Assembly (NCBI GenBank): GCA_963669175.1 | Contig: OY769902.1 | Span: forward strand, 96,001-160,000 | Length of the DNA: 64,000 nucleotides | DNA from: a bacterium | GTDB taxonomy: Bacteria > Electryoneota > Electryoneia > Electryoneales > Electryoneaceae | Direction: 5' to 3' | Part shown: positions 24,940 through 62,280 of the stretch, piece after piece | Layout: the number at the start of each line of letters is the position of its first letter | How positions within the stretch are numbered: the first letter of the stretch is position 1 | Position numbers and translations under genes: made by a program | The notes under the pieces: model-generated | What the model saw: only the letters and a program-made list of their open reading frames with translations | Database searches by the model: none | What the model was told of the DNA's origin: nothing

Positions 24940-25323
24940 CCTGGACGAAAAGGGGACGGAATCCTTGTATGTCATTCCCATTCCCATGTCATCCCCGGCT
25001 TGAACGGGGATCTCGAAGTTCGGAAAAGGAAGCTGTACCCTTTTCGCAGTGAGACAACTGAAACACACGATGTGCAAGTATTGTCCATCTCCCGAGTTGC
25101 TTCCTGTATACATCACAGCGGGAAAAACCTGCAAACATAGTTGACACTTTGGGGATTCCTGCATCATATGTGGCAAGTCGGGCCATGCGGGCAAGAGTGT
25201 TATTCCACTCTCATTCGGTCGGGTGGCCCGATCCGCAAGTGATTGATTTTCCATAGCTGTTGCCGCCAGAATACTCCCACACAAGCAAATCGAATCGCTT
25301 CACTCCGAGCGCATCGGGACTGA
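24940..25323. repeat. ~380-bp composite direct repeat, copy 1 (AAAAGGGGAC palindrome pair, GTCATCCCCGGCTTG hairpin, 99-nt doublet)
   Basis: Near-identical to 28453-28832. An internally shortened copy lies at 28068-28313. Confidence 0.95.
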
Positions 25324-25397
25324 GAAGAAGATACCGGCAAAAGTGATCAGTCGCTTCGCTTCAGCGTGTTTCAAGCCGTCGGGGCCAAGTTCTTTCA

Positions 25398-27389
25398 CTA
25401 CTTCACATAAAACAGCTTTCGTGTCGTAGTCCAGCCCAGATCATTGGTCAGGGCAAGCAAATACAGTCCTGACGCCCCTTCCGGCGTCCAGGTGAAACCA
25501 CGATACCCGCGTTCCACCGATCCACTCGCCAACACCGCCACCTCACGTCCCAGCACATCATAGACAGCCGCATGCAACTCGCATGGTTGCGGCACAGCTA
25601 CCACGATTCGAGCCGATGCGTTGAAAGGATTCGGATAAAGCTCCTTGATAGCGAACTCCGTGGGCAACCCATCGTCCGTTTCCGGCATAAAATCCTCGAC
25701 AACAACAAAGCTGTTGGTTGTTGTGGACCACGCTTCCAGTGTCAACGGATCACGCACCCGGACACGCCACCAGGTAAACTCGTTCTGCGGAAAATCCGGC
25801 ACAACAAGGACCGTATCATTAACGATCAGCGTAGTATCGGCATTGGTAAACGACGGATTGTTCGCGATCTCAACACGGTACGTCAAGTCATCTTCTTCGT
25901 TGGCATCAAAAGATGGTTGCCAGCGGAACACCACCGTATCCCCAACAACGATCTCGTTTTCCGAAGGAAATACCAAATCGAACGATTGTGGCGGTAGCCA
26001 GGGAGTACAAGGCTCGGTTTCGAAAGGTATCACGTCCGTATCTATCGCAACTGTATCCCCCAATCCATCCGGATTCTGTGCAGCTTGATACGGCCCGCTC
26101 GGATCACCCCAGTAGTTATAGAAAACATCCAACTGGCTGTATTCCGGGTATTCCCGTTCTTGGGCAGCCGCAGGACCGTTTTGATAATAAAAGTCGTTAT
26201 AACAAAGCGTTAGATTCGAGTTTAATGCAGCGCCAACACATGCATTGTAGAACAAGCGATCACTGTAGCAAGAATAGTTCTGGTTTCGTATATAAAGATT
26301 GTGATGTCCATGTGCTAACACTTCTGGATCATTACCATGAAATGCATATGAACCGCTGCTTTGGCAACCCATGTTTAAAAGAAATATATTATGATGAAAT
26401 TCATAACTACCGAGAATACCCATAGCCGCAGCATCACCATTTGTATAATTATGAATGAAAGTATTATATGAACATATAACAGAATCTATTGCTGCATTTA
26501 GCCATAATCCACCACCAGCTCCCATGCGCCCGTTGTCAAAATCCCTCTCTGCATAATTACTGTCAAAATAGTTACTGTCTATTCTACAAAACACCATATT
26601 CATAACACTTAAGCCACCTCCAACAGCTGATTCGTTTTCTAGAAAACGATTGTTGACTATGGTCCAGCTTCCTCGAGTAATGGAACCATAAATATCTGCT
26701 CCACCACCAATATTTTTTGACCAGTTATTAACAAAGGTATTCCCGCGAAGTGTGCCGGACGAAGATCCTGACGCCAACCCACCACCTTCAAGAGACGAAG
26801 CTATATTATTAATAAACCTGTTGTTAACTACACAATAGGTTCCCCTGTCGATTCCCAATCCGCCACCATTTGTTGTTGAAGTGTTGTTGCTGAAAGCGCA
26901 ATTGGTGATTTCTCCATCACATCCCCAGAGTGAAGCGCCGCTCCCTCTGTTAGCGGAGTTGGACTCAAAGTGGCAATGCTCCAATATGACTGTTGAGTAG
27001 CGTGCCCTGAAACCACCTCCATACCCGTTTGTTACTTCACCACCCGCCAGAGTTAATCCGACAAGCCGAAATGTGCCTTCGAGAGAATCAGCCAGCGTAA
27101 GAGGGCGGTTGGTGCTGTCCGGGTCAAAATTGCATACGATGCGGGTGTTGGAGATGTGTTGCTCCAGGCTATCCTGCAGAAATAGAGATGCTAAGGTGAG
27201 ATCCTGTGTTGTAATAATGACTCGCTCGATATACTCGCCTTCCGCGACTAGAATTGTGTCGCCAACTACGGAATGATCAACAGCTTCTTGAATTGTAAGA
27301 TAGTCCGCGGGAACAGACAGTATCGTTCCCATTCCTGCAGAACTCACAGTCAGTACAACCAATATGCCGAATTGAGCTATTCTTCGCAT
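25398..27389 (-). CDS. Secreted right-handed beta-helix protein with an FN3-like domain and a YPNPFN C-terminal sorting domain
   Basis: Signal peptide, 'VPADYLTIQEAVD...GDTILVAEGEY' cap, N..GGG repeats, NYWGDPSGP, and LYPNPFN...VYDVLGREV...SGLY. Confidence 0.9.
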   Translation of the reverse strand: MRRIAQFGILVVLTVSSAGMGTILSVPADYLTIQEAVDHSVVGDTILVAEGEYIERVIITTQDLTLASLFLQDSLEQHISNTRIVCNFDPDSTNRPLTLADSLEGTFRLVGLTLAGGEVTNGYGGGFRARYSTVILEHCHFESNSANRGSGASLWGCDGEITNCAFSNNTSTTNGGGLGIDRGTYCVVNNRFINNIASSLEGGGLASGSSSGTLRGNTFVNNWSKNIGGGADIYGSITRGSWTIVNNRFLENESAVGGGLSVMNMVFCRIDSNYFDSNYAERDFDNGRMGAGGGLWLNAAIDSVICSYNTFIHNYTNGDAAAMGILGSYEFHHNIFLLNMGCQSSGSYAFHGNDPEVLAHGHHNLYIRNQNYSCYSDRLFYNACVGAALNSNLTLCYNDFYYQNGPAAAQEREYPEYSQLDVFYNYWGDPSGPYQAAQNPDGLGDTVAIDTDVIPFETEPCTPWLPPQSFDLVFPSENEIVVGDTVVFRWQPSFDANEEDDLTYRVEIANNPSFTNADTTLIVNDTVLVVPDFPQNEFTWWRVRVRDPLTLEAWSTTTNSFVVVEDFMPETDDGLPTEFAIKELYPNPFNASARIVVAVPQPCELHAAVYDVLGREVAVLASGSVERGYRGFTWTPEGASGLYLLALTNDLGWTTTRKLFYVK

Positions 27390-27406
27390 AGTTATTCCCT
27401 ATGGTG

Positions 27407-27443
27407 AAAAACCGGCTCTGTTCTACATATTTACAGAGCCGGT
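27407..27443 (-). terminator. Terminator/attenuator between the 128-aa and 663-aa genes
   Basis: ACCGGCTCTGT...ACAGAGCCGGT stem followed by a T-run, ending about 17 nt before the next ATG. Confidence 0.75.
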
Positions 27444-27459
27444 CTAATTTCAGGAAGAA

Positions 27460-27846
27460 CTAATTACTCAACAGTTCGAGGAAGAAATGCACTTGAGCGT
27501 AAGTTGGTTGTTCGTTTCCTGTACTAACAAGCTGAACCCATGTCCAGTCATCAATGTTAATAGGACAATTGTCCAACCAGCACGTTGTTCCGTTGACTAG
27601 GGCATCATGGGAAAATTGCCAATTAAAGCCATCATCAAGATAAGAAGTACAATGCCACTGCCCTGCAAACCCATAAGGTGTAGTTGCAGTTTTTAATGTA
27701 TTGTCATCACCAAGATCTGTACTCAATGGCACCTGATACGTTGCTTCTGCCGCAGGACGTGTATTTGACCAGGAATCCGATAATACCGGCAGTGCAATCA
27801 GCGCTACCACGAGTAACCCAAGTACGACTTTCGTCATCGTTTTCAT
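27460..27846 (-). CDS. Small secreted hypothetical protein (128 aa, three Cys)
   Basis: GGAGGT RBS and signal peptide MKTMTKVVLGLLVVALIALPVLS. Confidence 0.85.
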   Translation of the reverse strand: MKTMTKVVLGLLVVALIALPVLSDSWSNTRPAAEATYQVPLSTDLGDDNTLKTATTPYGFAGQWHCTSYLDDGFNWQFSHDALVNGTTCWLDNCPINIDDWTWVQLVSTGNEQPTYAQVHFFLELLSN

Positions 27847-27922
27847 GATGACCTCCCAATGTAGGATAGAATAGTGGCCTCATGCCACTTGAATAATCGA
27901 TTTCTTGAAATAAAACGCTCTT

Positions 27923-27955
27923 AAGATACCCCCCCCCCCCCATATGCGATGTCAA
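27923..27955 (-). promoter_or_regulatory. Sigma70-type promoter with a G13 tract in the -35/-10 spacer
   Basis: Minus strand reads TTGACA-tcgcatat-G13-TATCTT, a 21-nt spacer, about 75 nt upstream of the ATG. Confidence 0.7.
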
Positions 27956-28067
27956 GTAAAAATGTGTAAAAATCCAGATTTTTTATGGAACGCCGGTACA
28001 AGGGCTCTACGAGAATGATGCTTTCTGGTGAGTAATGATGTTTAGAGGAGACAGGAAATGATGAAGT

Positions 28068-29033
28068 CTGGACGAAAAGGGGACGGAATCCTTGTATGTC
28101 ATTCCCATTCCCATGTCATCCCCGGCTTGAACGGGGATCTCGAGGTTCGGAAAAGGAAGCTGTACCCTTTTCGCAGCAGAGAAACGTAAACACTGGAAAC
28201 AGAATAGAGACGGTTGGCCGATGCGCATGTGATTAATTTTCCATAGCTGATACCGCCAGAATTCTCACACACAAGCAAGACCTATCGCATCACTCCGAGC
28301 ACATCGGGACTGAGCGAAAGACACCTGCAAAAGGGGACAGTCACCTTTTCGATTACCGTATCATGAAACCTCACCAACGCGCGACGAAAAGGAAACAGTC
28401 CCCTTTTGCTGCAACCTTTTTTTACACTCAAGTAGCCAATGGAGTGATAAAACCTGGACGAAAAGGGGACGGAATCCTTGTATGTCATTCCCATTCCCAT
28501 GTCATCCCCGGCTTGAACGGGGATCTCGAAGTTCGGAAAAGGAAGCTGTACCCTTTTCGCAGTGAGATGACTGAAACACACGATGTGCAAGTATTGTCCA
28601 TCTCCCGAGTTGCTCCCTGTATACATCACAGCGGGAAAAACCTGCAAACATAGTTGACACCTTGGGGATTCCTGCATCATATGTGGCAAGTCGGGCCATG
28701 CGGGCTAGAGTATTATTCCACTCCCTTTCGGGTGGCCCGATCCGCAAGTGATTGATTTTCCATAGCTGATACCGCCAGAATTCTCACACACAAGCAAGAC
28801 CTATCGCATCACTCCGAGCGCATCGGGACTGAACAGAAGACTCCGCAAAAAGGGACAGCCACCTTATGAAACCCGACAGCAAGCAGTCGGGCCAAGCGCG
28901 CTCTACGTGAAAAGGAACCAATCCCCTTTTGCTGCAACCTTACTACAGGCGGACTGATGCTCTATGTAGAATAAACCCCGCCGGGCAGCTGCTTCCGCTT
29001 CGCTTCAGCGTTCTTCAAGCCGTCGGGGCCAAA
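28068..29033. repeat. Mosaic of composite repeats: short copy 28068-28313, palindrome pair 28310-28417, full copy 28453-28832, GGCCCCG element to 29033
   Basis: Direct matches to 24940-25323 and inverted matches to 13479-13680. Confidence 0.92.
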
Positions 29034-29047
29034 ACTGAAACGTACCC

Positions 29048-29722
29048 CTACCGTCCCATCATCAGGCGATCAGCGAGAAAGCCGGGCAGTCCGGCATCGA
29101 GAATCGCCTTGGCAGCAGTTTTGATCTCGTAGTCGAGACGCACCAGTTTACGCGCACCGGTCACGTTATCGAACAGCGTATACGCGGCTTTCGGGTTACC
29201 GTCACGTGGTTGTCCGGCAGAGCCGACATTGATCAGACGGCCAGAGCGGGTACGATGATCGTTGGGGACGTGAGTATGCCCGATAAAGGCGGTAGGGCAG
29301 GGTGAGACTTCCATGGCGTAGGCGGCATCGAGGTCGGTGAAAACATAGGGCCATCCCTCCGGGGTGCGTGGGCTGGCGTGGCAAAAAAATAAGCTCTGTT
29401 CTTTGTGGGTATAGGGAAGGTTCTTCAGGTATTCCGTGTTCTCGTCGGTCAGGGTTTCGCCGGTCCAGACCGCAGCACGGTGCGCATACTGGTTGAACCA
29501 GGTGATGTCCTGCAACCCGACGGCAGCGTGATCATGGTTCCCGGCCAGTACCACATCAGACACCTCTCTGACCGCATCGACCACTTCATTCGGATGGGCG
29601 CCGTACCCGACCAGGTCACCCAGGCAGATCACCTTGTCGGGTTTGTGACATAAAATATCCTCAAGAACAGCCTCAAGGGCGTTCATGTTGCCATGAATGT
29701 CCGAAAACAACGCAAACAGCAT
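29048..29722 (-). CDS. Metallophosphoesterase family protein
   Basis: SDIHGN, GDLVGYG, GNHD, HASP, GHTH and NVGSAGQPRDG motifs. Confidence 0.93.
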   Translation of the reverse strand: MLFALFSDIHGNMNALEAVLEDILCHKPDKVICLGDLVGYGAHPNEVVDAVREVSDVVLAGNHDHAAVGLQDITWFNQYAHRAAVWTGETLTDENTEYLKNLPYTHKEQSLFFCHASPRTPEGWPYVFTDLDAAYAMEVSPCPTAFIGHTHVPNDHRTRSGRLINVGSAGQPRDGNPKAAYTLFDNVTGARKLVRLDYEIKTAAKAILDAGLPGFLADRLMMGR

Positions 29723-29726
29723 GATC

Positions 29727-30281
29727 TTACTCCTGCTGTGCGGGGGGCTTCACATTATTTTTCTTTTTTCGCGGGTTTTTCGAACCGGAGGCATTGGGAT
29801 TGCCCTTGCCTTTTCCGGAAGTGTTGTTCGACTCAAATACACTGTTGTTCTTGATCTTGCGGATCTCTAATTCCCGCTCGTTATAGATGGCATCCAGGAT
29901 ACCATTGATAAACCGGCCGGATTGATCGGTTGAATACTCTTTTGCCAGCTCGATCGCCTCGTTGATCGAGACTTTCGGCGGCACATCTTTCAGGTAGAAC
30001 AGCTCGCACAAAGCCAGTCGAAGAATCAACTGATCGAGCAGGGCGATACGTTCCAAGTCCCAGCGTTCCGCCTTGGTACGTATCATCTCCAACAGTTCCT
30101 GCTTGTGCTGCACCGCCAATACGACCTGGTTACGTCCGAAATCCAGGTAGCGCTGTTCTCCTCCGATCACCAGTTCATCAAATGCCTGCCGTGGCTCGTG
30201 TTTACCTATCTCCACGGCATAGAGCACCTGCAACGCTCTTTCGCGAGCTTCGTGACGGCTGTTTGCGTTGCCGGCTTCCAT
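29727..30281 (-). CDS. nusB: Transcription antitermination factor NusB
   Basis: [14 protein letters not shown]...RI..LD..ILR, and [14 protein letters not shown]...FINGILD. Confidence 0.96.
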
Positions 30282-30308
30282 TTTACTATTGAATCTCCTG
30301 GATGAATG

Positions 30309-30349
30309 AAAAAAAGCGTACCCTGCAAACCCTCTGTTGCAGGGTACGC
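30309..30349 (-). terminator. Intrinsic terminator after ilvE
   Basis: 13-bp stem GCGTACCCTGCAA/TTGCAGGGTACGC followed by T7. Confidence 0.85.
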
Positions 30350-30361
30350 AGAAAGAGCAAG

Positions 30362-31372
30362 TTACGGAATATCAACCGGGGTTAGCCAGCCATATTTATC
30401 ATCCCGAGTACCATTTATGATCGCGAAGAAACGTTCCTGCAATTTGCGCGCGATCTCACCCCGTGAACCGGTTCCAATCGTGATCCGGTCAATAGAACGA
30501 ATCGGGGTAACCTCTGATGCAGTACCGCAGAAGAAGACTTCATCCGCCAGGTAGAGCATCTCACGCGGGATCTGATGCTCTTCCACATGCGCATCAATCT
30601 CGCCCTCTTCCAGCAGCTCGCCGAGGAGCTGAATCAGGCTGTCACGAGTGATGCCGGGGAGCACACTGTTGCCGAGCGGCGGTGTGTAGATGACTTTCTT
30701 GTCCTTCAGGTAGACGAAGATATTCTCGCCGCTACCTTCGGAAACAAAGCCGTTGGAATCCAGCGCAATGCCTTCCACATAACCGTTCTTGATCGCTTCC
30801 TGCTTGATCAACTGGCTGTTCATGTAGTTGGCGCCGCATTTTGCCAGGGCCGGGAAGGTGTTCGGAGCCATACGTGTCCACGAGGACACACAGACATCCA
30901 CACCCTTTTCCAGCGCTTCCGGGCCGAGATACTTGCCCCAGAACCAGGTCATGACAAACACATCCACCGGGCAGGGACGCGGGTCCACACCCAGGCTGTT
31001 GTAGCCACGCATGATGACTGGACGGATATACGCGGCCTTGTCGCCGTTCGCCTTCACCGTCTCAACACACGCCTGCATCATCTCGTCAACCGTGTATTCG
31101 AGACGTTTTCCCGATTTGCCCTGTTCAACGATCTCAGGCAATTCATCGGGGGTCATGCGGTATATTTTGGCTGAATTGTAAAGACGCTGTACATGCTCAC
31201 GAAGTCTGAAAATCACACTCAGGCCGTTTTCACGCTCCTGATGGTACATCCGGATTCCTTCAAAAACCGAGGAACCATAATGAAGAGCATGCGTTCCCAC
31301 ATGCACGTTGGCGTCGTTCCAGGGAACCAGTTCCCCGTTCATCCAGATCTTACCGGAACCGTCAAAACCCAT
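30362..31372 (-). CDS. ilvE: Branched-chain amino acid aminotransferase
   Basis: [33 protein letters not shown] and GTASE motifs. Confidence 0.96.
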
Positions 31373-31533
31373 GGTCTGTCCTCCCGAGTAGTCTGCTGTT
31401 TTGTATCGAAAGTGGTTTGCTGCATATCCAAGCGCACCAACAAACCTGTAACAATCTTTTTGGCCCCGTCCGGCTTGTCCGGCGGGGTTTATTCTTATTC
31501 AGATTAAGAAGCCAGTCCTTCAGCAGCCACCGT

Positions 31534-31754
31534 TCCCGACTTGCTCAATACTTCTGATTCTATGTCAAGCCCAGCACACATAGCAACCTGCTCACTCCAT
31601 CACACCGGCACTTCAGGCAAATCGGGCCATGCGATCCATTTTTTTTCCGCCCAGTTGGGTGGCCCGATCCGCATGTAAGCATTCATCCCTTCATGATGCG
31701 GATAGAATACTCCCGTAATATCAGTATCTATGATAAACCTTGAGCGCATCGGGA
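31534..31754. repeat. Inverted doublet of ~99-nt conserved-end elements
   Basis: TCCCGACTTGCTC...GCAAATCGGGCCATGC (31534-31632) and GGGTGGCCCGATCCGC...GAGCGCATCGGGA (31657-31754). Confidence 0.88.
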
Positions 31755-31772
31755 CTATGTCAAAGCCAATTT

Positions 31773-32363
31773 CTACAGCACCTGTTCCACCGGGATCTCC
31801 AGCCATTGCGGCGGATCAGGCGGTTTGATCAATTCGCCATTTTCCATCAACTGCCACGTCCGTATCAGCAGCCAGATACAGCCACGATGCGCGACAACGA
31901 TTGCCGGTTTCCCGGGCCATTGTAGCGCCGCACGCTTCAACCCGCGTAACAACCGGACACGCATTTCCGCAATCGTTTCTCCACCGGGAGGCGCTTCATG
32001 CTCCACTGTACGCACCCGTTCCCACGCTTCCCGATGAGTCTCGAACGCTTCTTCATACGACGTCCCGGTCCAGCTACCGTAATTCCGCTCACGCAGGTCG
32101 GCATCAGTCACCTGTTCCAGCCCGAACCGTTTCGCTACGATCTCACCGGTAACCCGCGCCCGTTTCAGATCGCTGGTATACACTCCGCCAAACTCAATTC
32201 CGGTTTGAAGGAGCGCTTCCGCCAACTCAGCAGCCTGTTGCAATCCCTTCGGCGTAAGCTCCGGCTCTGTCTGCCCGGAAACCCAGCCCTCAAGGTTCGC
32301 TACCGACTGAGCATGACGTGTCATATACAACATGGACATATGCAAAACGCAGGAATTCAACAT
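31773..32363 (-). CDS. Histidine phosphatase (phosphoglycerate mutase-like) family protein
   Basis: RHAQS, SDLKRA, LRERNYGSW, GGET and VAHRG motifs. True start may be a few codons downstream. Confidence 0.9.
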   Translation of the reverse strand: MLNSCVLHMSMLYMTRHAQSVANLEGWVSGQTEPELTPKGLQQAAELAEALLQTGIEFGGVYTSDLKRARVTGEIVAKRFGLEQVTDADLRERNYGSWTGTSYEEAFETHREAWERVRTVEHEAPPGGETIAEMRVRLLRGLKRAALQWPGKPAIVVAHRGCIWLLIRTWQLMENGELIKPPDPPQWLEIPVEQVL

Positions 32364-32386
32364 GGAACTCCGGCGATAGTATCCTG

Positions 32387-33529
32387 TTACTTGCCGAGAA
32401 TCTGACGGCTGATGACGATACGCTGAATTTCGTTGGTGCCTTCGTAGATCTCGGTGATCTTGGCATCACGCAGCAGACGTTCTACCGGGTACTCACGTGA
32501 GTAGCCATAGCCGCCGTGAATCTGTACCGCTTCTTCCGCGCACCAGGTTGCCGCTTCGGAGCAGTAGACCTTGGCCATGGCGGCTTCCTTGGTGAACTTA
32601 CGTCCCGAATCCTTCAGCCAGGCCGCGTGATACAGCAGGTGACGAGCGGCGGAGACACGCATCTGCATGTCCGCCAGCTTGAACTGTATCGCCTGGAACG
32701 CAGCGATGGGACGATTGAACTGATGACGTTCCTGCGAGTATTTTACCGCTTCTTCCAGCGATGCCTGGGCAATACCCAGCGCCTGAGCGCCAACCCCGAG
32801 ACGTCCGCTGTCCAGTGCAGTCAGCATGACCTTGAAGCCCATGCCGTGTTCGCCGATCAGGTACTCGTTCGGGACGCGCACGTCGTCAAAGGTCAACGCT
32901 ACGGTATCGGTGGAACGCATGCCCATCTTCTTTTCATGCTTACCGATTTCGATACCGGGGGTGTCTGCCGGTACGATAAACGCACTGGTGCCCTTCGCGC
33001 CTGCATCCGGATCGGTCACACAGACGTACAGATACGCCTGGGCGTTGGAACCTCCGGTGATGAAGTTCTTCGAACCGTTGATCACCCAATGGTCGCCATC
33101 TTTGACCGCTCGGCTTTTCATGGCGCCGGCATCACTGCCGCTGCCGGGTTCTGTCAGACAAAACGCTCCCCACCATTCACCGGAAGTGAACTTGGGCAGG
33201 AAGTTGGTCTTGATAAAATCGTTGCCGAATTTCTCCAACGGATAACAGATCAGGCTGTTGTTGATGGAAAGCAACACTTCGACCGATGGGTCAACACGAG
33301 CGATCTCTTCCATGGCAGCCACATATCCGACAGTGTCAAATCCACCACCGCCGAACTCTTCGGACGCGATAACACCATAGAAGCCCAGCTCACCCAGTTG
33401 CTTCATCTGTTCATGCGGAAACAGGCCTTTGTCATCCCGTTCCGCCACACCCGGCCGTAATTCCTTTTCAGCAAAATCACGAGCCGTTTGCCGCAGCATT
33501 TCCTGTTCTTCGTTGAAAGTGAAATCCAT
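32387..33529 (-). CDS. Acyl-CoA dehydrogenase (short/branched-chain type)
   Basis: FCLTEPGSGSDA, INGSKNFIT, QIHGGYGY and IYEGTNEIQR motifs. Confidence 0.96.
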   Translation of the reverse strand: MDFTFNEEQEMLRQTARDFAEKELRPGVAERDDKGLFPHEQMKQLGELGFYGVIASEEFGGGGFDTVGYVAAMEEIARVDPSVEVLLSINNSLICYPLEKFGNDFIKTNFLPKFTSGEWWGAFCLTEPGSGSDAGAMKSRAVKDGDHWVINGSKNFITGGSNAQAYLYVCVTDPDAGAKGTSAFIVPADTPGIEIGKHEKKMGMRSTDTVALTFDDVRVPNEYLIGEHGMGFKVMLTALDSGRLGVGAQALGIAQASLEEAVKYSQERHQFNRPIAAFQAIQFKLADMQMRVSAARHLLYHAAWLKDSGRKFTKEAAMAKVYCSEAATWCAEEAVQIHGGYGYSREYPVERLLRDAKITEIYEGTNEIQRIVISRQILGK

Positions 33530-33846
33530 GCAGTTCCCCGGTGCTGGTGCGCCTGACTGGTACGGATCTCCTTTATCCGGTCCCTGTCACACGCGCTGTG
33601 AACGCTTATTTTCCACGTTAACCGGACATAGTTGCCCGGAATGAACGGTTTACGCCAATGCCAATATAACAAAACGAATGCCGTTGCACCTCTCAAAGGG
33701 AGCGAGGATTTTCCTGGTAACCATATCCGAAACCTGCTCGAGGCTATTTCTTGTCTTAGGGGGACAATCCATGTGAATTGCCTCTACCAATTGCAGGAGG
33801 GCGCTTCCGTAGTTACTTTATTTCGGGGACAGAAATGGAGTAACAG

Positions 33847-34764
33847 ATGAACATGGACTCATCCAGGGACGGTAAACCACGTTTTCGTCTGCTCGCTATT
33901 GACGATGATGCCGGGATGCACAACCTTGTTGACAGGCATCTTGACGGTGTCGTTGCAGAAATCCGTCACGCTACTTTGCCGGAAGTTGGCCTCAAGATGG
34001 CCATGGAGCAAGACTTTGATGTCATCCTGCTAGGGGTGGACATGCCTGGCATGGACGGATTCCAGGTATGTCGACATCTGAAAGCTACACGCCGTACACG
34101 ATTTGTTCCAGTAATCTTCCTGACCGGACGTGATGACCCGGCTTCTATCGCTTACGGGCTGGACCTTGGGGCAGTGGATTTCCTGACCAAACCAACCCCG
34201 CCATTGGAACTCCAGGCACGAGTGCGTGTAGCCCTGCGTCAGTATGACATGGTCAACCATTTCATCAAGAACTCACACCTTGACCCTCTTTCCGGCCTCC
34301 TCGCCGCTGAACAGTTCGAGGTCAACTTAAAGCGCGCGCTGCACCGTTATGAACGTAGCCAGATCCCCTTCTGCCTGTTGATTCTGGACCTGGATCGCTT
34401 CAAACACCTGAACGAGCGCTACGGGTTCAATGCCGCGAACGAGGTGCTGCGACGGGTCGGTTCTGTGATCCACGGCGGCCTGAGAAATAACGACCTCGCC
34501 CACCGTCTGAAGGAGGATCGTTTCGGCATCCTGCTCGAGGACATCTTCCCCGAGAAAGCGCCGGAAGCAGCGAACCGGCTGCTTGACAGTGTCCGCAGGT
34601 TGAAAATTCCCGTAGGCAGCGAAGTCCTCACTGTCACCATGTCCGCCGGACTGGCCTGTGTGCCCTCCAATGACCAGAAAAAACTGTATGACCTGGCCTA
34701 CCAGGCCATGAAACAGGCGAAGGTGAAAGGAAGGGACCGGTTGGGGGTTGCGCAGCAGGTTTGA
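33847..34764 (+). CDS. REC-GGDEF (WspR/PleD-like) protein with degenerate motifs
   Basis: REC domain (IDDD, MPGMDG, KP), then DPLSGL, DLDRFKHLNERYG and KVKGRDR. The active-site position reads RLKEDRF. Confidence 0.88.
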   Translation: MNMDSSRDGKPRFRLLAIDDDAGMHNLVDRHLDGVVAEIRHATLPEVGLKMAMEQDFDVILLGVDMPGMDGFQVCRHLKATRRTRFVPVIFLTGRDDPASIAYGLDLGAVDFLTKPTPPLELQARVRVALRQYDMVNHFIKNSHLDPLSGLLAAEQFEVNLKRALHRYERSQIPFCLLILDLDRFKHLNERYGFNAANEVLRRVGSVIHGGLRNNDLAHRLKEDRFGILLEDIFPEKAPEAANRLLDSVRRLKIPVGSEVLTVTMSAGLACVPSNDQKKLYDLAYQAMKQAKVKGRDRLGVAQQV

Positions 34765-34836
34765 AAGTTGAAAGTCTTGCAGCCATATCAGGTTGGTGGG
34801 TGGCCCTGTATGTTTCTGGCAGTTCTGCATAAGAAC

Positions 34837-35040
34837 GCGTGGCCCGATTTGCCGGAAGTGTACATAATACTCTCGCAATGCTGACAACAATTGTGAGTCG
34901 TCGTCCTGTGATACGGATGATGAGCAAGTCGGGTTTTGGGAGAGCCTGGGTGAGCCGATGCATAAGCGAGAGTGGTAGCCAAATTGCAGGTATACTGTGG
35001 TGCTGGAACAAGGTGTGAAGCAAAAAGAAGTGGATCGGGA
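34837..35040 (+). repeat. Tandem pair of conserved-end elements (98 nt, and a degenerate 93 nt)
   Basis: GCGTGGCCCGATTTGC...GAGCAAGTCGGGT. Region ~34795-34962 is homologous to ~59511-59680. Confidence 0.8.
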
Positions 35041-35256
35041 CAGATCTGATAGCGAGTTTTCATATGGAACACAGTATTGTGCCCGCTACAGATATTAGTG
35101 GTAGCGCGACAACTCGTACAGGAACACCAGACATTCCGGAAGAGTGAAATATAGTGAATGGACACAATGAGGAAACTGGTATCTGGAAAACTGGGACTTG
35201 CCCCATTGCAGTTATTATTATGTAAATAGTATATTTATAAGAGAAAGGGGACAAAT

Positions 35257-35505
35257 ATGAAAGACGTTCACAAAGAAGCGCTCGAGTTCTACATAGCACA
35301 TCAGGATGAGCTTGTTGCCAAGTACAATGGTAAAAGTATTATCATTGTTGAGCAGGAAGTGAAAGGCGTTTTTGATTCAGATCGCGATGCCTTGAGAGAA
35401 GCCAGAAAGATGTTCAGGACTGGAAGCTACATGATCAAGCGGGTTGGACCGGGTAAAGACAATTATACTCAAACCTTTCATTCCGGGCGTATCTCCTTCG
35501 TATAA
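35257..35505 (+). CDS. Small DUF5678-like protein (82 aa)
   Basis: Pattern F...H..EL..KY.GK.I.I....V.G.FDS...A......F..G.Y.I..VG. An AAGGGG RBS is present, and the gene sits directly upstream of an aspartyl protease, a context I recall as typical. Confidence 0.75.
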   Translation: MKDVHKEALEFYIAHQDELVAKYNGKSIIIVEQEVKGVFDSDRDALREARKMFRTGSYMIKRVGPGKDNYTQTFHSGRISFV

Positions 35506-35530
35506 CAAACCTATTCAAGGAATTTTGGTC

Positions 35531-36157: not shown

Positions 36158-36165
36158 AAACAATT

Positions 36166-48524: not shown

Positions 48525-48582
48525 AGTCTTGTAGACCGTTGCACTTGAACCGCTATCCAATACTCTTAGCGGGCTTTAGCCT

Positions 48583-51120: not shown

Positions 51121-51148
51121 TCACGTTGTAACAGGTCTTTATCATGTT

Positions 51149-51330: not shown

Positions 51331-51447
51331 GAACTTGGGAATTAAGTGATTGATATCCGGCAGGGCAACGGGATTATCCTTTCTAATTGCCGCGCACCTG
51401 ATAAAACCTTACTTTCCATGCAAATGTTAGTCAACCACGGGGAGAAG

Positions 51448-52044: not shown

Positions 52045-52051
52045 GGCGACG

Positions 52052-53752: not shown

Positions 53753-53910
53753 AACCAGTGGACAGTTTCATCTAATGTGAGTGATACTGCTTGTCACCCC
53801 CTGACCGGCATCGCAGGTCAAAACAGTGATGCAGTTTCAACGTGTATTGCCATCAAGAGTGGATCGGGACTGAGTCGAGAGTTGTGCTTATGTAAGAGAG
53901 TGAAGCCTTT

Positions 53911-54010
53911 TCCCGATGCTCTCAAGAGTGTAGGTGCGAATGGCTACTTAAGAGGGAGTATTAAGCTTCACAGAGAGTGGAAACTGTATCGCGTTCGCAT
54001 CGGGCCACCC
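53911..54010 (-). repeat. 100-nt conserved-end element
   Basis: Minus strand reads GGGTGGCCCGATGCG...AATACTCCC...TGAGAGCATCGGGA. Confidence 0.8.
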
Positions 54011-54040
54011 GCCCTTCTATCATTATAATATAAATATTAG

Positions 54041-56263
54041 TTACATTGGGCTAATATCTTTGCGTTTTAACCTCTTCATTACCTTGTCTTCTGCTATAAT
54101 ATGTAAATATCCCACAGCCCGTGAAGCACCAACGTATATTTGTTTTTCTATCTCATCACTCATGGTAATAATAAATAGTATTATTCCATCTGATTCCATC
54201 CCTTTATACATCTCTATTGTATATATTGGTATCATATTATGCTTTTTTTTGTTTTCATGAAAGATTGGTAATACATTGTTATTCTGTGTTATATTTTTAA
54301 TATCTATTGACCATTTATATCCTGAATAATATTCTATTCTTTCTTGTAGCGTTGTTTCTCTTTGAATAATAATTGGTTTTTCTTCGCTTTTATATTGCCT
54401 CTTAACAGTTGTTTCGCTAAATATCTCAACTTTATTTTCCTTTAATATCATTTTATAAGTACTATTATTTCTAGTTTTACCATATATTTTTATTAATATT
54501 TTTGATATGTTGTTTATTTCTTGTATATCCGACTCTGAAGGTGTTGTTCCTTGAGACAATAAAGGAATTTTTAAATATTTATTAATATGTTCTCTTTTAG
54601 ATATGCCATATTTGTCATAAATATCATGCTTTATTTTATTTTTCAAAATTGTGTTCATACCTATTTGCTTTAAACTAAGCTTTTTATTGCTTGTATCATA
54701 TCTATTGTATTTGATTGTATTGTTATAAATGTCATTTATTTCCTTATCTATTTTATCAATTACAATTTTTTTCATGTCGTTTATGTCATCAGTGATAAAC
54801 TTCTGCCAAGTATCCTTTGGTATATAAACATTATCCAATTTAAGCAATATGCTATTTTCAATGCTTGGTTCGTTCGTTAATATCTTTATATTATCATAGC
54901 GTATGTATTTTTTTATTTCTTCAATCGATTCCTCTATTATATTGTTAATGTTATCAAGCTTATTGAAAGAACTAATTTTAACAATACCTTCATCTTCAAG
55001 CATTTTATTAGTAGATGGCGCATTTTTGTTAAATCTACGAACAATATCAAATATCTTACCTGCGTTACGGCAATTTTTTGAAATGATCATAGGATCGTTA
55101 TTGATAAGCATAATTTTTCTTAAAGGCAATAAAGACTGTATGTCATCATAAAATATATATAACATAGCATCATTGTTGTTATCAATAAGTGCCTCAATAA
55201 TACACCACCAACTGTATCTAAAATCCTGTCCTTCATCGACTATAATAGCATCATATTTCAAATGATTATTTTTATATATTTTATTGATCGCTGTATAAAT
55301 GTCTTCATCGGTAGGTTCAATTTTATTATTCCAAAAAGAATTGTAGATAAATTCCTTATTAATCAATCTGTAAATATAATTTGTGATATCAAAAACATCA
55401 ATATCAGTAAGACTAGTCATGTTACGTATATAGCAAGAAAGCAAAGGGTTATGACATAACAATAATGTTTTAATACCAGCATTGTCAAGTCTTAATGCCT
55501 TTTCAGTTGCAACAAGAGTTTTACCTGACCCAGCACATCCAGAAATAAGTGCTTTTTTAGTATATCTAAAACAATGCATCATGTTGTATTGTTCATTGGT
55601 CAAGTAATCAACATTTTTTCTTATTGTGTCCATAAATGATGTAATAGAATAAGAAAAACGATCGCTTTCAGGGTTTAGTAATTCTTCATAAATAATATTT
55701 CTGAAATCATCCTTATCGAACATAATATCGGAAAGTGAATTAATAAGGGAAGATTTAAAATTATCAAGGTCAGTTTTGCTAGGTATAGAAGCTCTAAAAT
55801 TTTGTAAATATTTTATTATATAAATTAATCCTTCTTCTTTAGTTAATGTATTGTAAAATAATAATTCATATTGATTAAGGCAATCACTTATTATAGAAGA
55901 GGCCAATCTAATATTGTTAACATTGTATTCTGTCATAAATCTATCAGTAAAAGATTGTTTAAATTCATCACGATTAAAATCCTTAATATCTAAATAATTA
56001 ACATCTGTAATAGATTTAATAATATTAAAAAGTTTGTGCTTGTCTTTAGAAACTTCTTCAATTACTAAATTGATATCATTCTTGCCAAAATCATCAACAC
56101 TAGCAAAATTGTGTTTTAGAGCTGAAATGAAAGAATTAAAGAAATGATCTTCGAAAACAGTGAGGTCATGAGAAGAAAGCTTATTTGCTAAAAAACCAGC
56201 ATGAAGACTAGCTAAAAAACTCAAAGGATAACCGAGTAGTAAAGAAAGGATTTGAAGGTCCAT
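54041..56263 (-). CDS. AT-rich SF1 (UvrD/DUF2075-like) helicase/ATPase with an unknown helical N-terminal domain
   Basis: Walker A GCAGSGKT, LLCHN, Walker B IIVDEGQD, FYDDIQ, KNCRN, TIEMYKGMESD and YVGASRA. Start taken at ATG 56263 after AGGA. Confidence 0.85.
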   Translation of the reverse strand: MDLQILSLLLGYPLSFLASLHAGFLANKLSSHDLTVFEDHFFNSFISALKHNFASVDDFGKNDINLVIEEVSKDKHKLFNIIKSITDVNYLDIKDFNRDEFKQSFTDRFMTEYNVNNIRLASSIISDCLNQYELLFYNTLTKEEGLIYIIKYLQNFRASIPSKTDLDNFKSSLINSLSDIMFDKDDFRNIIYEELLNPESDRFSYSITSFMDTIRKNVDYLTNEQYNMMHCFRYTKKALISGCAGSGKTLVATEKALRLDNAGIKTLLLCHNPLLSCYIRNMTSLTDIDVFDITNYIYRLINKEFIYNSFWNNKIEPTDEDIYTAINKIYKNNHLKYDAIIVDEGQDFRYSWWCIIEALIDNNNDAMLYIFYDDIQSLLPLRKIMLINNDPMIISKNCRNAGKIFDIVRRFNKNAPSTNKMLEDEGIVKISSFNKLDNINNIIEESIEEIKKYIRYDNIKILTNEPSIENSILLKLDNVYIPKDTWQKFITDDINDMKKIVIDKIDKEINDIYNNTIKYNRYDTSNKKLSLKQIGMNTILKNKIKHDIYDKYGISKREHINKYLKIPLLSQGTTPSESDIQEINNISKILIKIYGKTRNNSTYKMILKENKVEIFSETTVKRQYKSEEKPIIIQRETTLQERIEYYSGYKWSIDIKNITQNNNVLPIFHENKKKHNMIPIYTIEMYKGMESDGIILFIITMSDEIEKQIYVGASRAVGYLHIIAEDKVMKRLKRKDISPM

Positions 56264-56279
56264 AGAATTCCTAAAGTAG

Positions 56280-56320
56280 AAAAAGATATTGGGGTGTTGT
56301 AAAAACAACAACCCCAATAT
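56280..56320 (-). terminator. Intrinsic terminator after fumC
   Basis: ATATTGGGG..TGTTGT/ACAACA..CCCCAATAT stem followed by CTTTTT on the minus strand. Confidence 0.75.
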
Positions 56321-56333
56321 AAAAAGTAAAATG

Positions 56334-57722: not shown

Positions 57723-58182
57723 CGCCTTCGTCCTCCCGTATAAGTTGAAACGACTGGCACACACTAAAAGTGGATCAGTCTGACTTGACCAATGCACACA
57801 GCATGTCGGTTTCCGAATCGTGCCGCTCCCCGGCAAGGGAAAAAGCACGGTTATCCATGTGCAATGATCCACGATACTTGCGAACCTGCAATATCGGAAA
57901 TGTTGCTGTACTACGCCACTGCTGGCCTCCAGAGAAAGTTCCGCTCTCAATAATTAATCGCAATTATTCCTGTTGATTTCCTTTGGGATTTTGTAGATTC
58001 TTTCAGGAATTACAGGGAACGCAACCTGACTTTTCCTGAGACACGGCTTCCTGAAACACGATTGCTTTTCCTGCTATCCCTGACCGTACGCGGCGAGTGA
58101 CAACAATGCGGTATCATGGGATGTCCAATTCAGCATTTTCTGAAGTTGACATACGATCGGGTAAAACCTTGTAGGAGGTAGC

Positions 58183-59385: not shown

Positions 59386-59414
59386 GTCGCCTCTATATGT
59401 CTTGTTGAAACATC

Positions 59415-59449
59415 AACCACCCTGCTGTCTCTTCGGCGGGGTGGTTTTT
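59415..59449 (+). terminator. Intrinsic terminator after the porin
   Basis: AACCACCCTGCTG...CGGCGGGGTGGTT stem followed by a T-run. Confidence 0.85.
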
Positions 59450-59554
59450 GTTGTATTCACAGGATGGACAGGATGATAAGGAATGAACAGGATAAGGGAT
59501 TTTTCTGTTATTGGCGGGGGAGCCTGTAGGTTTCCAGCAGTTCTGTACATGAAC

Positions 59555-59653
59555 GTATGGCCCGATTTGCCGGATGTGTAGCATGATACTCTCGAAATGT
59601 TGACAACATTTGTGGGGTGTCGTCTTGTGATGTGAATGACGAGCAAGTCGGGA
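59555..59653 (+). repeat. 99-nt conserved-end element
   Basis: GTATGGCCCGATTTGC...GAGCAAGTCGGGA, with a loop related to 34837-34934. Confidence 0.85.
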
Positions 59654-59811
59654 TTGTGGGAGCCTGGGTGACCTGATGCAATTGTCCTGCAACAGCGCGG
59701 CGCCTCTTCTCTTGTTCAGATTCAAATATCTCGTAGCATGACTTGTTTTTAGTTTCGAGTCCAATCTAGTTTATATATGAGGTCTAATAAAAAGAATGAT
59801 GGGAGACGGAT

Positions 59812-62106
59812 ATGTCGAGAATTCGTTTGTTGCTTATTACAGCGCTGTTTCTTGCCAGCACACCGGTTTTCGCTCAAGACAGCCTGAACATCAGCTCGGT
59901 CAGCACGTTCATGAATTACTGGGGCGAACCGGCCAGTATTGCTGTTGTTGGTGATATTGCCTATGTAGGTGTTCTCAATCATGGACTCGCCGTGTTGGAT
60001 ATCTCCAACCCCACAGCACCCCGGGAAATCCGGACAGTGATTCCAGCCAAGGATGTTTACGGCCTGCAAATCAACCAGAATTTTCTCTACGCTGCTTGTC
60101 ATACTGACGGCCTGCTTGTCCTTGATATCAGTACTCCTGAGAGTCCGCAGTACCTGAATACGGTCACCCCTGAAGCGTATCCACATGAGCTTTGGATGGA
60201 ACAGGGGTACCTGCTGTGCAAAGGAATGCATAGCTGGTCGGGAATTGGAAATGGCGGATACTCTCTTCCTTTTTACGTATATGACTTGACAGATCCATCC
60301 TGTCCCGTAGAAATAGACCATATTCCCTATGAAACCAGCCGTCAGAATCCTTGTGAGTGGATGGATGCGACCTTTCTGGACAGCACAACTTTGCTTCATG
60401 GAGAAGGATACTGGGCGTCTGTGTATTCGTTATCAGAGGATGGATTTGTAAGTCTTGGTGAATGGCCAGCCAGGTTTTATTCAAACACAATGGCTGCTAT
60501 GGATACATTCCTGTTTATTCAAGAAGATGGTTATCTTCAGGTAATATCTGTTTCTGACCGGCAGAATCCAGAATTGATCACAGTTGTTGAGAATGAGGGC
60601 TATTGCGATCGGATGCGGGTGTCAGGAGATACACTGGTAGTGGCTAATTTCGGCTATAGTCCATACGTCGGTATCAGTATCTTTGATATCAGTGATCCCA
60701 CCAATCTGCAGAGAATTTGTAACTTCGAGATGGCTGAGCATATCAATGATTACGCTATCCAAAACGACACACTCTTTACTGTCAGGCATATTAACAATGG
60801 GACAGATAGAATGGCCATCTGGGCACACAATGACCAGAACGAATTCACATTTCTTGGCGAGTATTCGGATCCTGGCGGGGCATTAGCGCTGGCTGCCTAC
60901 GATACTCTGCTGTATGTTGCGAAAGGAATTAACGGTTGTTCCATCGTGTCACTGGCTGATCCCGAACACCCGCAGATTATCAATGAAATCCAACCGCCTG
61001 TACAAGATACCGAGTGTATTTTTGTTAAGATTGAAGATGATTACCTCTTTCTTCTGACCTCCCTTGATTCCAATGGCTATCTGCACATATACACGTTAAC
61101 TCAGCCCGATGCACCTGAATTTCAATGTAGTCTAACTATTAACATAAACAATGCATTACAAACACTTGACTATTGTTCCTTCAATGGTGACAGTCTGCTT
61201 GCGGTAATGAAATACAACGGTGAAAGTTATGTGTCTATTCTGAATATTGCGGACCCTCAGAATCCGGAATTCTGTTCAACGATTCCAGGTCTGGGCTTTG
61301 GAATTGTTGAAGGAAATCGCTTCTATAATGCAGCCTACGGTATCAGAATCTGGGACATTTCGGATCCGTATACCCCAGAACAAATAAATGTCTATGCTGA
61401 TGAGTTTTATGGCGATCCTGTTGTCTATCATGGGATACTGTTTGAAACCGGATGCTGGGCGTTCAGCGAGCCGGCATTCCAGATTTTCGACTTACGTGAT
61501 CCGTCAAACCCAACCAGGATTTACCGTCGCTACCATACATATTTGGGTATTCGAGGGATGTGGAGTCATTTCCTGCTGACAACTGAATATGACACGACGG
61601 GTACATACCATCGTATTGTCATCAAGGACGTCTTCCAACCTTCAGCTCCTCACAATAGTGGCTCTTATCGTTCCCCCTATATAATGAGTGAGCTAGAGGT
61701 AGTGGGGGAAAACTACCTGGTAGGTGCAGCCCGAAGTAACTCGACTCCCTATCGCTACGTACAGGTTTTCGAAGCCGGGGAAGCGCTGGGGGTGGAAGAA
61801 GATCCTGTTTCAGATGGGGTGATGCCTTCCGGTTTCGCCATCGAATCGATCTACCCCAACCCGTTCAACAGCGCCACGACAATCCGTTACACTCTGCCGG
61901 AAACCGGAGATGTGCGTGTCGGTGTCTATACGGTTACCGGGCAGGAAGTATTTTCGCAAACCTTGTCGGGAAGGAATTCCGGGGCGCACCTGTGGTCGTG
62001 GGCAGGTTCCGGATCAGACGGCAGTACACTTGCATCCGGCATGTACTTCATCCGAATGGAGTGGGAAGGACAGACACAAGCTGTAAAAGTCTTGCTGCTG
62101 AAATAA
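59812..62106 (+). CDS. Secreted LVIVD-repeat (beta-propeller) protein with a YPNPFN C-terminal sorting domain
   Basis: Signal peptide and repeated GL.VLDIS.P..P / IFDISDP units. Tail YPNPFN...LASGMYF...LLK. Confidence 0.92.
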   Translation: MSRIRLLLITALFLASTPVFAQDSLNISSVSTFMNYWGEPASIAVVGDIAYVGVLNHGLAVLDISNPTAPREIRTVIPAKDVYGLQINQNFLYAACHTDGLLVLDISTPESPQYLNTVTPEAYPHELWMEQGYLLCKGMHSWSGIGNGGYSLPFYVYDLTDPSCPVEIDHIPYETSRQNPCEWMDATFLDSTTLLHGEGYWASVYSLSEDGFVSLGEWPARFYSNTMAAMDTFLFIQEDGYLQVISVSDRQNPELITVVENEGYCDRMRVSGDTLVVANFGYSPYVGISIFDISDPTNLQRICNFEMAEHINDYAIQNDTLFTVRHINNGTDRMAIWAHNDQNEFTFLGEYSDPGGALALAAYDTLLYVAKGINGCSIVSLADPEHPQIINEIQPPVQDTECIFVKIEDDYLFLLTSLDSNGYLHIYTLTQPDAPEFQCSLTININNALQTLDYCSFNGDSLLAVMKYNGESYVSILNIADPQNPEFCSTIPGLGFGIVEGNRFYNAAYGIRIWDISDPYTPEQINVYADEFYGDPVVYHGILFETGCWAFSEPAFQIFDLRDPSNPTRIYRRYHTYLGIRGMWSHFLLTTEYDTTGTYHRIVIKDVFQPSAPHNSGSYRSPYIMSELEVVGENYLVGAARSNSTPYRYVQVFEAGEALGVEEDPVSDGVMPSGFAIESIYPNPFNSATTIRYTLPETGDVRVGVYTVTGQEVFSQTLSGRNSGAHLWSWAGSGSDGSTLASGMYFIRMEWEGQTQAVKVLLLK

Positions 62107-62178
62107 TCCTCTTGATAAACGCAGCGGATATATAGTGGAGATGTTTCGCCTCATCGCGATATACATGCTTATGAACAT

Positions 62179-62280
62179 TCCCGACTTTGCTCATCAACTT
62201 CTGCTACAGGAAAAAACTCTGTATCCAAATCAAGTACGAAAAGAATACTAATATCAGCACAGGGCAAAATCGGGCCACCC
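62179..62280 (-). repeat. 102-nt conserved-end element with both stem arms extended by one base
   Basis: Minus strand reads GGGTGGCCCGATTTTGC...GAGCAAAGTCGGGA. Confidence 0.8.

Follow-up and report, generated by a model that had tools for sequence, protein, structure and literature searches.

The 64-kb stretch of bacterial DNA considered here (the window; G000:C1:96001-160000) belongs to a single-contig genome of 5.447 Mb with 50% G+C (G000) and contains a dispersed repeat of about 100 nt, in which two inverted boxes enclose an interior of fixed length. An earlier note, drawn up from the letters of the window alone, listed 12 such units. All of them are real: nine were recovered by the strict pattern TGGCCCGA-N70-100-TCGGGA, starting at 25090, 25224, 28603, 28733, 31534, 31660, 53911, 59558, and 62179, against an expectation of 0.04 matches and with none of 100 shuffles reaching nine, and the remaining three (28211, 34837, and 34948) are degraded copies. 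As argued below, the units are probably repetitive extragenic palindromic (REP) elements with an expanded loop, mobilized by a REP-associated tyrosine transposase (RAYT). In window coordinates, and with one short REP hairpin among them, they are as follows.

25090..25188, minus strand: type I long element with ATGG tag, stem CCCGACTTGC, and ~72-nt interior, 96 nt from TGG to TCGGGA
25221..25319, plus strand: type II long element with GTGG tag and stem CCCGATCCGC/GCGCATCGGG, in which one pair is a C:C mismatch, and with the tag turned toward the tag of the 25090 unit
28211..28309, plus strand: degraded type II copy with mismatched boxes (left TTGGCCGA, right arm GAGCACATCGGGA)
28603..28701, minus strand: type I element, 98% identical to that at 25090, within a 288-nt local direct repeat
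28730..28828, plus strand: type II element, paralogue of that at 25221
28872..28894, minus strand: short 24-nt REP hairpin, TGG-CCCGAC-8 nt-GTCGGG, with tag and foot as in the long units
31534..31632, minus strand: type I element, interior a singleton
31657..31754, plus strand: type II element, interior a singleton
34837..34934, plus strand: type I element belonging to a 25-copy cluster, with 3' box TCGGGT
34948..35040, plus strand: degenerate, shortened type III-like copy of 93 nt, TGAGCCGATGCA...GTGGATCGGGA
53911..54010, minus strand: type II-like element of 97 nt, stem CCCGATGCGA/GAGAGCATCGGG
59555..59653, plus strand: type I element that shares 95% identity with the copy at G000:C1:1655400
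62179..62280, minus strand: type IV element of 99 nt, each arm longer by one base (CCCGATTTTGCC/GGCAAAGTCGGG)

The arms covary as first described (TTGC/GCAA versus CCGC/GCGC, with one base gained on both arms at 62179), and this covariation extends genome-wide. The motif AATACTCCC indeed stands at an equal offset in the units at 25221, 31657, and 53911. Back-to-back doublets of types I and II, reported at three loci, are also real, but two of them (25090/25221 and 28603/28730) are not independent, because both lie in one 97%-identical, 288-nt local duplication. The two copies of this direct repeat (24931-25218 and 28444-28731), together with the next type II unit, bracket a 3.1-kb segment with a lowered G+C content (44%) that encodes a 663-aa protein with a type IX secretion system (T9SS) sorting domain and a 128-aa open reading frame (ORF) without a family match; a partial third copy lies at 28059-28336. 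The whole region, 24931-28855, seems to have arisen by local duplication or by an insertion that the repeat doublet mediated.

Across the genome, the distances from a left box to the next right box are bimodal, with 117 pairs at 80 to 88 nt, peaking at 82 nt (55 pairs), and a second mode of 41 pairs with a gap of exactly 10 nt. When one box mismatch was allowed and opposite-strand duplicates and arrays of short REPs were removed, 162 long units were obtained, with a mean length of 96.4 nt, a standard deviation (SD) of 1.23, and a range of 94 to 101. Because the cleaned units cluster so tightly, the narrow length distribution is real; the constancy of length noticed in the window thus holds genome-wide, and the broad distribution that the earlier note had named as a refutation was not seen. 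Units of a second genome of the same genus (G001) are likewise narrow in length, about 2 nt longer (mean, 98.0; SD, 1.7; n = 48).

The anatomy of the unit ends is that of a REP. The 5' tag consists of TGG preceded by G in types II to IV (GTGG) and by A in type I (ATGG); the consensus of the 5' flank is cGGG+TGG in types II to IV and tGCA+TGG in type I, a one-base variant of the GT[AG]G tag of REPs. As in REPs, this tetranucleotide stands 0 to 2 nt from the foot of a hairpin with a G+C-rich basal stem, here of 10 bp, within the 7 to 20 paired bases that define the class. Stem positions 1 to 5 form an invariant foot, CCCGA/TCGGG in 152 to 160 of the 162 copies. The five upper positions vary yet stay paired, by covariation or wobble (n = 162 throughout): position 6 is TG in 74 copies, TA in 46, CG in 26, GC in 6, and AT in 4, with a single A:C; position 7 is TA in 93 and GC in 11, with CC (29) and TC (11) mismatches; position 8 is CG in 84 and TA in 74; position 9 is GC in 102, AT in 28, and TA in 14; and position 10 is CG in 145 and GC in 13. 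Every wobble is of a sort that can pair on the tagged strand but is a mismatch on the opposite one, and judging from these base counts the T:G versus A:C asymmetry at position 6 fits pairing on one strand of folded single-stranded DNA (ssDNA). The ends are asymmetric, with a tag on one side only, and the arms are not themselves palindromes. Conserved bases continue for a short distance into the loop, as (A)AGTGATG following the 5' arm and GAG preceding the 3' arm.

The enzyme that would act on such a hairpin was found beside the units. A search of G000 with the Pfam Y1_Tnp model gave 10 matches, one of them located between long units: an ORF at G000:C1:4081897-4082460(-), encoding 187 aa (RAYT#1), is flanked by four type II units, two to one side (4081569(+) and 4081732(+)) and two to the other (4082498(+) and 4082638(-)). 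A RAYT or TnpA-Y1 gene flanked by the boxes was what the earlier note had proposed to look for. RAYT#1 scores 92 bits on the NCBIfam model NF047646, "REP-associated tyrosine transposase" (cut-off, 80), and aligns to PDB 4ER8 over the HUH (NHVH) and YIHSNPV motifs; H66, H68, and Y144 are invariant among 11 homologues. The AlphaFold2 model (pLDDT, 87.3; pTM, 0.84) has 4er8_A as its best Foldseek match (E = 9.5e-9; TM scores, 0.64/0.72), ahead of the ISDra2 and IS608 transposases. The protein thus combines the HUH motif, the catalytic tyrosine within YIxxNP, a score above the family cut-off, and the HUH fold that together mark a RAYT. The arrangement of repeat copies around a RAYT gene, the REPtron, is described in PMC6006769 and PMC3333891. 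RAYT#1 is the probable cognate enzyme of type II. Because the same tag and foot recur in types I, III, and IV, these may be served in trans by RAYT#1 or by its paralogue at 2242304-2242858 (48% identity, 83 bits).

That paralogue is adjoined by an array of 24-nt hairpins, TGG-CCCGAC-N8-GTCGGG, the 23-nt core of which has 95 exact copies in G000. Two further RAYT-family genes above the cut-off, at 5087438 and 3618404, each have their own hairpin family on both sides. Altogether, four RAYT-family genes of G000 pass the cut-off, the closest pair being 48% identical, and each has a distinct flanking hairpin family; as is typical of RAYTs, they are single diverged copies with a repeat family each, not identical copies of an insertion sequence. 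The gene at G000:C1:5087438-5087830 (89 bits; L115) has hairpins of the GTGACCTGAC type on both sides, and this 10-mer occurs 132 times in G000. On both sides of the gene at 3618404-3811 lies a second long REP-like family, GGCGAAAAAT...GTTACCTTTTC-N36-39-GAAAAGGTAAC...ATTTTTCGCC, of about 93 nt with a nested hairpin. It numbers 39 copies (G000:C1:3618023-3619076 and 38 other places), 30 of which have a loop of 37 nt, and its motif also occurs near a Y1 gene of G001 (L118).

The long pattern matched 117 times in G000, 73 times in G001, and 0 to 3 times per genome in the other 39, which belong to the family and phylum, the latter counts resembling those of the reversed-pattern control; among the 41 genomes scanned, the long form was found only in G000 and its congener. 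A scan of 185,579 species' genomes returned at least 73 stretches; among the matches listed, 32 came from one metagenome-assembled genome (MAG), and those outside it were single matches in unrelated taxa. RAYT homologues are present in 14 of 15 genomes of the same family, with best matches of 34 to 48% identity. At 11 of the 19 RAYT loci in other genomes, tagged hairpins lie near the gene, at 14 to 150 nt (at L096, at 35 and 247 nt), usually as an inverted pair with a hairpin to either side; their tags are mostly GTGG, sometimes ATGG or TTGG, and their loops span 2 to 29 nt. Short hairpins of the form TGGCCCGA-N4-34-TCGGG are plentiful in many relatives, numbering 123 in G009, 80 in G008, 57 in G001, 48 in G012, and 45 in G006, against 0 to 6 in controls, and TGGCCCGACTTGC-(2-3 nt)-GCAAGTCGGG in G027 and G032 is letter for letter the terminal stem of type I. 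The short REP of G000 is present also in G003. Because relatives carry the same tag and stems on short loops, the long unit is a REP whose loop expanded about tenfold in one genus. Three long hairpins near RAYT homologues were inspected as well: that of G033 was rejected as an array of short REPs, and that of G036 was rejected as single-copy, while that of G006 has 6 copies of 82 to 99 nt.

Taken together, the units are probably GTGG-tagged REPs in which the loop has grown to a constant ~72 nt and which a RAYT moves in the form of ssDNA hairpins. They are the long-loop form of a known REP/RAYT system and not a new kind of element. Among the possibilities raised in the earlier note, HUH-type ssDNA-hairpin sites are the one backed by RAYT#1 with its four flanking copies, the 4ER8-like fold, and the T:G wobble covariation. 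By analogy with TnpA-REP of Escherichia coli, the arms would pair on the tagged strand when the DNA becomes single-stranded, a monomeric HUH/Y1 enzyme (the RAYT) would bind the tag and the foot of the stem, and cleavage and rejoining of nearby ssDNA would then copy or move the unit; some copies may move as doublets of two inverted units whose tags lie outermost. The E. coli enzyme is a monomer that contacts the 5' GTAG and the bottom 3' stem of folded ssDNA and cleaves nearby (PMC3479197), and the loop of the E. coli REP has a non-specific role only, although group 3 enzymes read loop bases beside the stem (PMC8266576). The invariant parts of the long unit are the tag and the lower stem, along with a few loop-proximal bases, and therefore a TnpA-REP-like recognition is suggested, which would leave the rest of the loop free. 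The sequences themselves show how the units are built, how many there are and how they covary, their spread through intergenic regions, the identity of the RAYT and the units around it, nearly identical copies at distant sites, differences in occupancy between the two species, and a tag and stem homologous to those of short REPs in relatives; binding, cleavage, the ssDNA intermediate, and the reason for the fixed loop length we infer.

The ~72-nt interior is unpaired and was said to be unrelated between most loci. This does not stand: interiors form families, with weak in-register identity between them. Single-linkage clustering at 70% identity, a level above the 67% that shuffled interiors reach at most, gave 58 clusters, with sizes of 56, 25, 12, 6, 4, 4, and 3, six pairs, and 45 singletons. 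Ungapped, in-register identity between cluster representatives of the same stem type is 0.34 in the left half and 0.32 in the right half, and 0.30 and 0.275, respectively, between different stem types; off register it falls to ~0.255 at shifts of 2 to 8 and to 0.264-0.268 at a shift of 1. Because identity in register exceeds that at shifted positions, the interiors are homologous, nearly saturated with substitutions, and still in register. Alignment of the interiors as ordinary diverged copies, which the earlier note had named as grounds against its reading, thus applies within families, and between families the identity is weak only.

No structure is conserved in the interior. RNAalifold on the three largest clusters retained the terminal stem alone, minimum free energies were unremarkable (z = -0.19 for the element strand, -0.28 for its reverse), and mirror complementarity was 0.377 versus 0.370 in shuffles, so that dyad symmetry was not in excess. 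The interior is slightly T-rich (30.5% T) and, by the same z of -0.19, not depleted of structure either. These results bear on the proposal that the units encode structured RNAs of ~96 nt closed by a terminal helix, possibly with an adjacent kink-turn-like GA motif. The terminal helix does covary, with G:U-type wobbles, and GTGATG following the 5' arm, together with GA immediately preceding the 3' arm, may bear a loose likeness to box C/D geometry. The lack of interior structure argues against such an RNA, as do Rfam, which gave no match at the gathering score in the whole window and none at E ≤ 1 in 24900-35200, the absence of an orientation bias among units between co-directional genes (20/14 where these are ++, 25/30 where they are --), and the lack of enrichment of promoter-like and terminator-like sites in the units (9 versus 9.2 and 9 versus 9.6 in shuffles). 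Since the flanking of a RAYT and the homology to short REPs already account for the conserved parts, the RNA explanation, one of those offered originally, is very improbable.

One feature within the interior is conserved, an A-T pair at positions 48 and 49, the exact center of the unit. The central motif, at positions 48 to 50, is the only interior feature that recurs across subfamilies and in both species, and takes the form ATAC (types II and III), [CT]ATG (type I), or CAATG (G001). The units could be paired sites in duplex DNA, 13- to 16-bp boxes about 9 helical turns apart with a bending protein at the central motif and a role in nucleoid organization or supercoiling. Such a function would be compatible with the length, fixed (SD, 1.2 nt) despite near-saturated sequence, with the A-T-containing motif at the exact center (48-50) in the G000 types and in G001 (CAATG), with an interior that lacks single-strand structure, and with the enrichment of units between convergent genes. 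However, the T:G versus A:C asymmetry (74 versus 1) and the covariation at positions 8 to 10 better fit strand-specific pairing, relatives hold the same tag and stem around loops of 2 to 29 nt, without a 70-bp spacing, and a candidate binding protein was not identified. We regard duplex sites as unlikely, and they could coexist with RAYT-driven spread, in a host role as proposed for bacterial interspersed mosaic elements (BIMEs) and repetitive IHF-binding palindromic (RIP) elements.

The fixed length may be one that the enzyme or a host ssDNA-binding protein requires, may serve a duplex-level host function, or may simply reflect a low rate of insertions and deletions. The tetramer of single-strand-binding protein (SSB) has a wrapping mode of ~65 nt. 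Conceivably, though we would give it little weight, the ~72-nt interior is a sequence-free ruler, on which one SSB tetramer or another sequence-blind ssDNA binder joins the arms when the DNA is transiently single-stranded and presents the tag and foot to the RAYT. A ruler would explain why length is kept across ~55 lineages and two species while sequence is near saturation and no structure is kept. If true, this would be the first REP class with mobility dependent on a host ssDNA-binding protein as a geometric cofactor.

Evidence for dispersal comes from unit pairs that are 93 to 97% identical within unrelated flanks (1798345/2947350, 317483/1188599, and 5049971/5271973; also 439538/1655400). 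In these pairs, identity begins 0 to 7 nt before TGG and ends 4 to 17 nt after TCGGGA. The 31534/31657 doublet occupies a 400-nt intergenic region, the G001 counterpart of which is 47 nt long and empty; among five syntenic G001 sites compared with G000, one is occupied in both genomes and four in G001 only. Because coding DNA of G001 is only 72 to 76% identical to that of G000, intergenic alignment is uninformative for the exact boundaries of insertion. One orthologous region, corresponding to G000:C1:422890-423160, holds a masked run of N inside a unit array (L023, a G001 contig, ~6800-6900).

No general target-site duplication accompanies the units: the longest word shared between the flanks is 4 to 7 nt in 142 of 162 cases, like the control pairing, as expected for HUH chemistry. 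This result weighs against a classical miniature inverted-repeat transposable element (MITE), with terminal inverted repeats, a DDE transposase, and target-site duplication. Inverted ends, a length of ~100 bp, high copy number, and subfamilies recall such elements, and a few copies do have long flanking direct repeats, e.g., of 24 nt at G000:C1:1251057. Yet the ends are asymmetric, with the tag on one side only, the arm mismatches are biased toward wobbles, and the autonomous partner found beside copies belongs to the HUH RAYTs and not to the DDE enzymes, although no search was aimed at DDE elements with the same ends. A MITE origin is therefore most improbable. The copy with the 24-nt repeat is a type III unit (G000:C1:1251025-1251185) beside a terminator-like hairpin, and the second copy of the repeat has one additional A; a 14-nt direct repeat flanks the unit at 3461012. 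Flanking duplications of this length (1251057 and 3461012) are not expected for HUH insertion.

Six doublets consist of inverted units with the tags outside, separated by a partly conserved spacer of 43 to 44 nt. Because the six share their ends and one of them is the pair next to the RAYT, doublets can also be copied as a unit. In G001, both flanks of 16 unit groups (L015-L086) match G000, and in 11 of these the flanks map to distant positions. This means that breakpoints of synteny are marked by the units, or else that contigs of the MAG were wrongly joined at repeats.

Several observations weigh against RAYT-driven movement of long-loop REPs. Only type II flanks a RAYT, and types I, III, and IV are without one of their own. 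G001, with at least 73 copies, has no homologue of RAYT#1 at E ≤ 1e-10 in its assembly of 390 contigs (92% complete), and its best family match, at 74.6 bits, falls below the cut-off. Contigs of four public sequencing runs neither support nor contradict excision: they break or are mis-joined at units, as expected because the units are repeats, and none cleanly bridges an empty site. The counts by replichore (47/44 and 33/38) show no bias between replication strands and, therefore, no lagging-strand signature. The ~72-nt loop departs far from the short loop of known REPs, given as 2 to 20 bp in PMC3733652 (Table 1; inner loop regions of at most 27 bp in the text) and as 2 to 5 nt in the descriptor of PMC6006769, and the interior is not the hairpin-capable spacer of a hairpin-forming pair of REPs (REPIN), since dyad symmetry is at 0.377 versus 0.370, z is -0.19, and RNAalifold finds the terminal stem alone. 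Finally, recognition by a RAYT explains neither the central A-T motif (positions 48 to 50) nor the fixed length.

Among known systems, the closest are the GT[AG]G REPs and their RAYTs (PMC6006769, PMC3733652, and PMC3479197). In PMC6006769, RAYT subclass 2.4 is characterized by NH[IFV]H, WQ, and YIxNNP and by REPs with GT[AG]G and three G-C pairs at the foot. Shared features are the tag at the foot, the three bottom G-C pairs, and the 10-bp stem; copies that number in the hundreds, lie between genes in either orientation, and include clusters and dimers; and, as in REPtrons, copies flanking a single-copy HUH/Y1 gene with NHVH, WQ, and YIHxNP. With ~162 dispersed intergenic copies, four of them around RAYT#1, the family presented here is of this kind, and its invariant tag and lower stem are the parts that TnpA-REP contacts in E. 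coli (PMC3479197). It differs in its loop of ~72 nt, unstructured, variable in sequence, and constant in length; in the ATGG of type I; in the YIHSNP of the enzyme, in place of YIxNNP (PMC6006769); and in a host that is not a proteobacterium and whose phylum's proteins carry T9SS sorting domains. The units are best filed as giant-loop GTGG-tagged REPs with a subclass 2.4-like RAYT.

The statement of the earlier note that known REPs are short-loop hairpins is fair but incomplete, since REPINs of ~100 bp, which conserve their ends, vary in the middle, and keep within a constrained length, have already been described (PMC3116915; RAREFAN preprint, 10.1101/2022.05.22.493013). All of these properties, along with the association with a RAYT and diverse populations that suggest long residence, are shared by the units described here, and doublets with the tags outside occur here too (6 copies, 43- to 44-nt spacer). 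However, a REPIN consists of two inverted REPs that are nested palindromes, with compensatory changes that preserve the hairpin capacity of the spacer, whereas a single unit here has one tag and non-palindromic arms. The ends of IS200/IS605 elements and their derivatives of the palindrome-associated transposable element (PATE) type have in common with the units a hairpin with a 5' guide, the lack of target-site duplication, and, by analogy, HUH/Y1 chemistry on folded ssDNA; the units differ in containing no transposase, in having one hairpin instead of separate left- and right-end hairpins, and in showing no replication-strand orientation bias. BIME-1/RIP of E. coli consists of two REPs around a site for integration host factor (IHF). 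It resembles the units as a ~100-bp composite with inverted ends and a conserved central feature, but the ends of the units are not self-contained hairpins and no IHF-type consensus was identified at the center. The IHF link of E. coli REP composites is mentioned in PMC3479197. The literature covered, in the sections available, describes no REP with an unstructured loop of ~70 nt, and the atypical structures (subclasses 2.6 and 3) of Table S1 in PMC6006769 may include some.

Detection of REPs and REPINs assumes short loops or paired spacers, namely loops of 2 to 5 nt in PMC6006769 and inverted 21-mers in RAREFAN, so that a giant-loop family would escape these tools or be misfiled as a MITE or a small RNA. 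A REP foot and tag that are kept among the families of a non-proteobacterial phylum tolerate a ~tenfold expansion of the loop and still proliferate, in agreement with structural work in which the RAYT reads the tag and lower stem. A fixed length without conservation of sequence or structure poses the question of how large hairpin loops are dealt with by HUH enzymes or by ssDNA-binding proteins of the host. Moreover, many of the intergenic repeats and assembly breaks in this genus are due to the ~160 units together with three or more further REP families.

With respect to placement, copies occur singly or in small clusters, in both orientations and all round the chromosome. By a crude codon-usage caller (3,435 genes, 83.6% of G000), 111 of 116 strict copies fall between genes; the remaining five are in ORF heads that the caller over-extended, immediately upstream of the probable start codon of large proteins that form one paralogous family. 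Regions between convergent genes are enriched in units (52 of 162, compared with 359 of 2,168 intergenic regions in the background), and those between divergent genes are somewhat depleted (21 of 162). This distribution is relevant to the suggestion that the units are attC-like integron sites marking captured cassettes. The likeness, drawn in the earlier note, lies in an imperfect inverted-repeat site with a variable center that folds as ssDNA. A co-oriented array with one site per gene, as in an integron, was not found; the units are dispersed in both orientations through ordinary intergenic regions, and the neighbouring genes are largely housekeeping. Gene capture is thus extremely improbable, although no search was aimed at an integron integrase. 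The related impression that most units sit beside accessory genes also fails: neighbours in the window include NusB, a class IV aminotransferase, an acyl-CoA dehydrogenase, fumarase, and an ATP-sulfurylase/APS kinase.

Two smaller observations concern particular neighbours. One type I subfamily lies directly upstream of paralogous proteins of ~1100-1250 aa (G000:C1:573829, 1912348, 1912588, 2127532, 4048613, and 4768302), the probable start codon of which (MRFSVSFF...) overlaps the complement of the GCATGG tag region. In the window, the unit at 53911 is adjoined by a 758-aa gene (54041-56317, minus strand) in an island of 26.5% G+C; its product has weak ResIII/AAA matches and hits the PADLOC models "RTasNERD-Hel" (DRT, E = 4e-30) and "NERD+UvrD," and the gene is probably a horizontally acquired, defence-type helicase.

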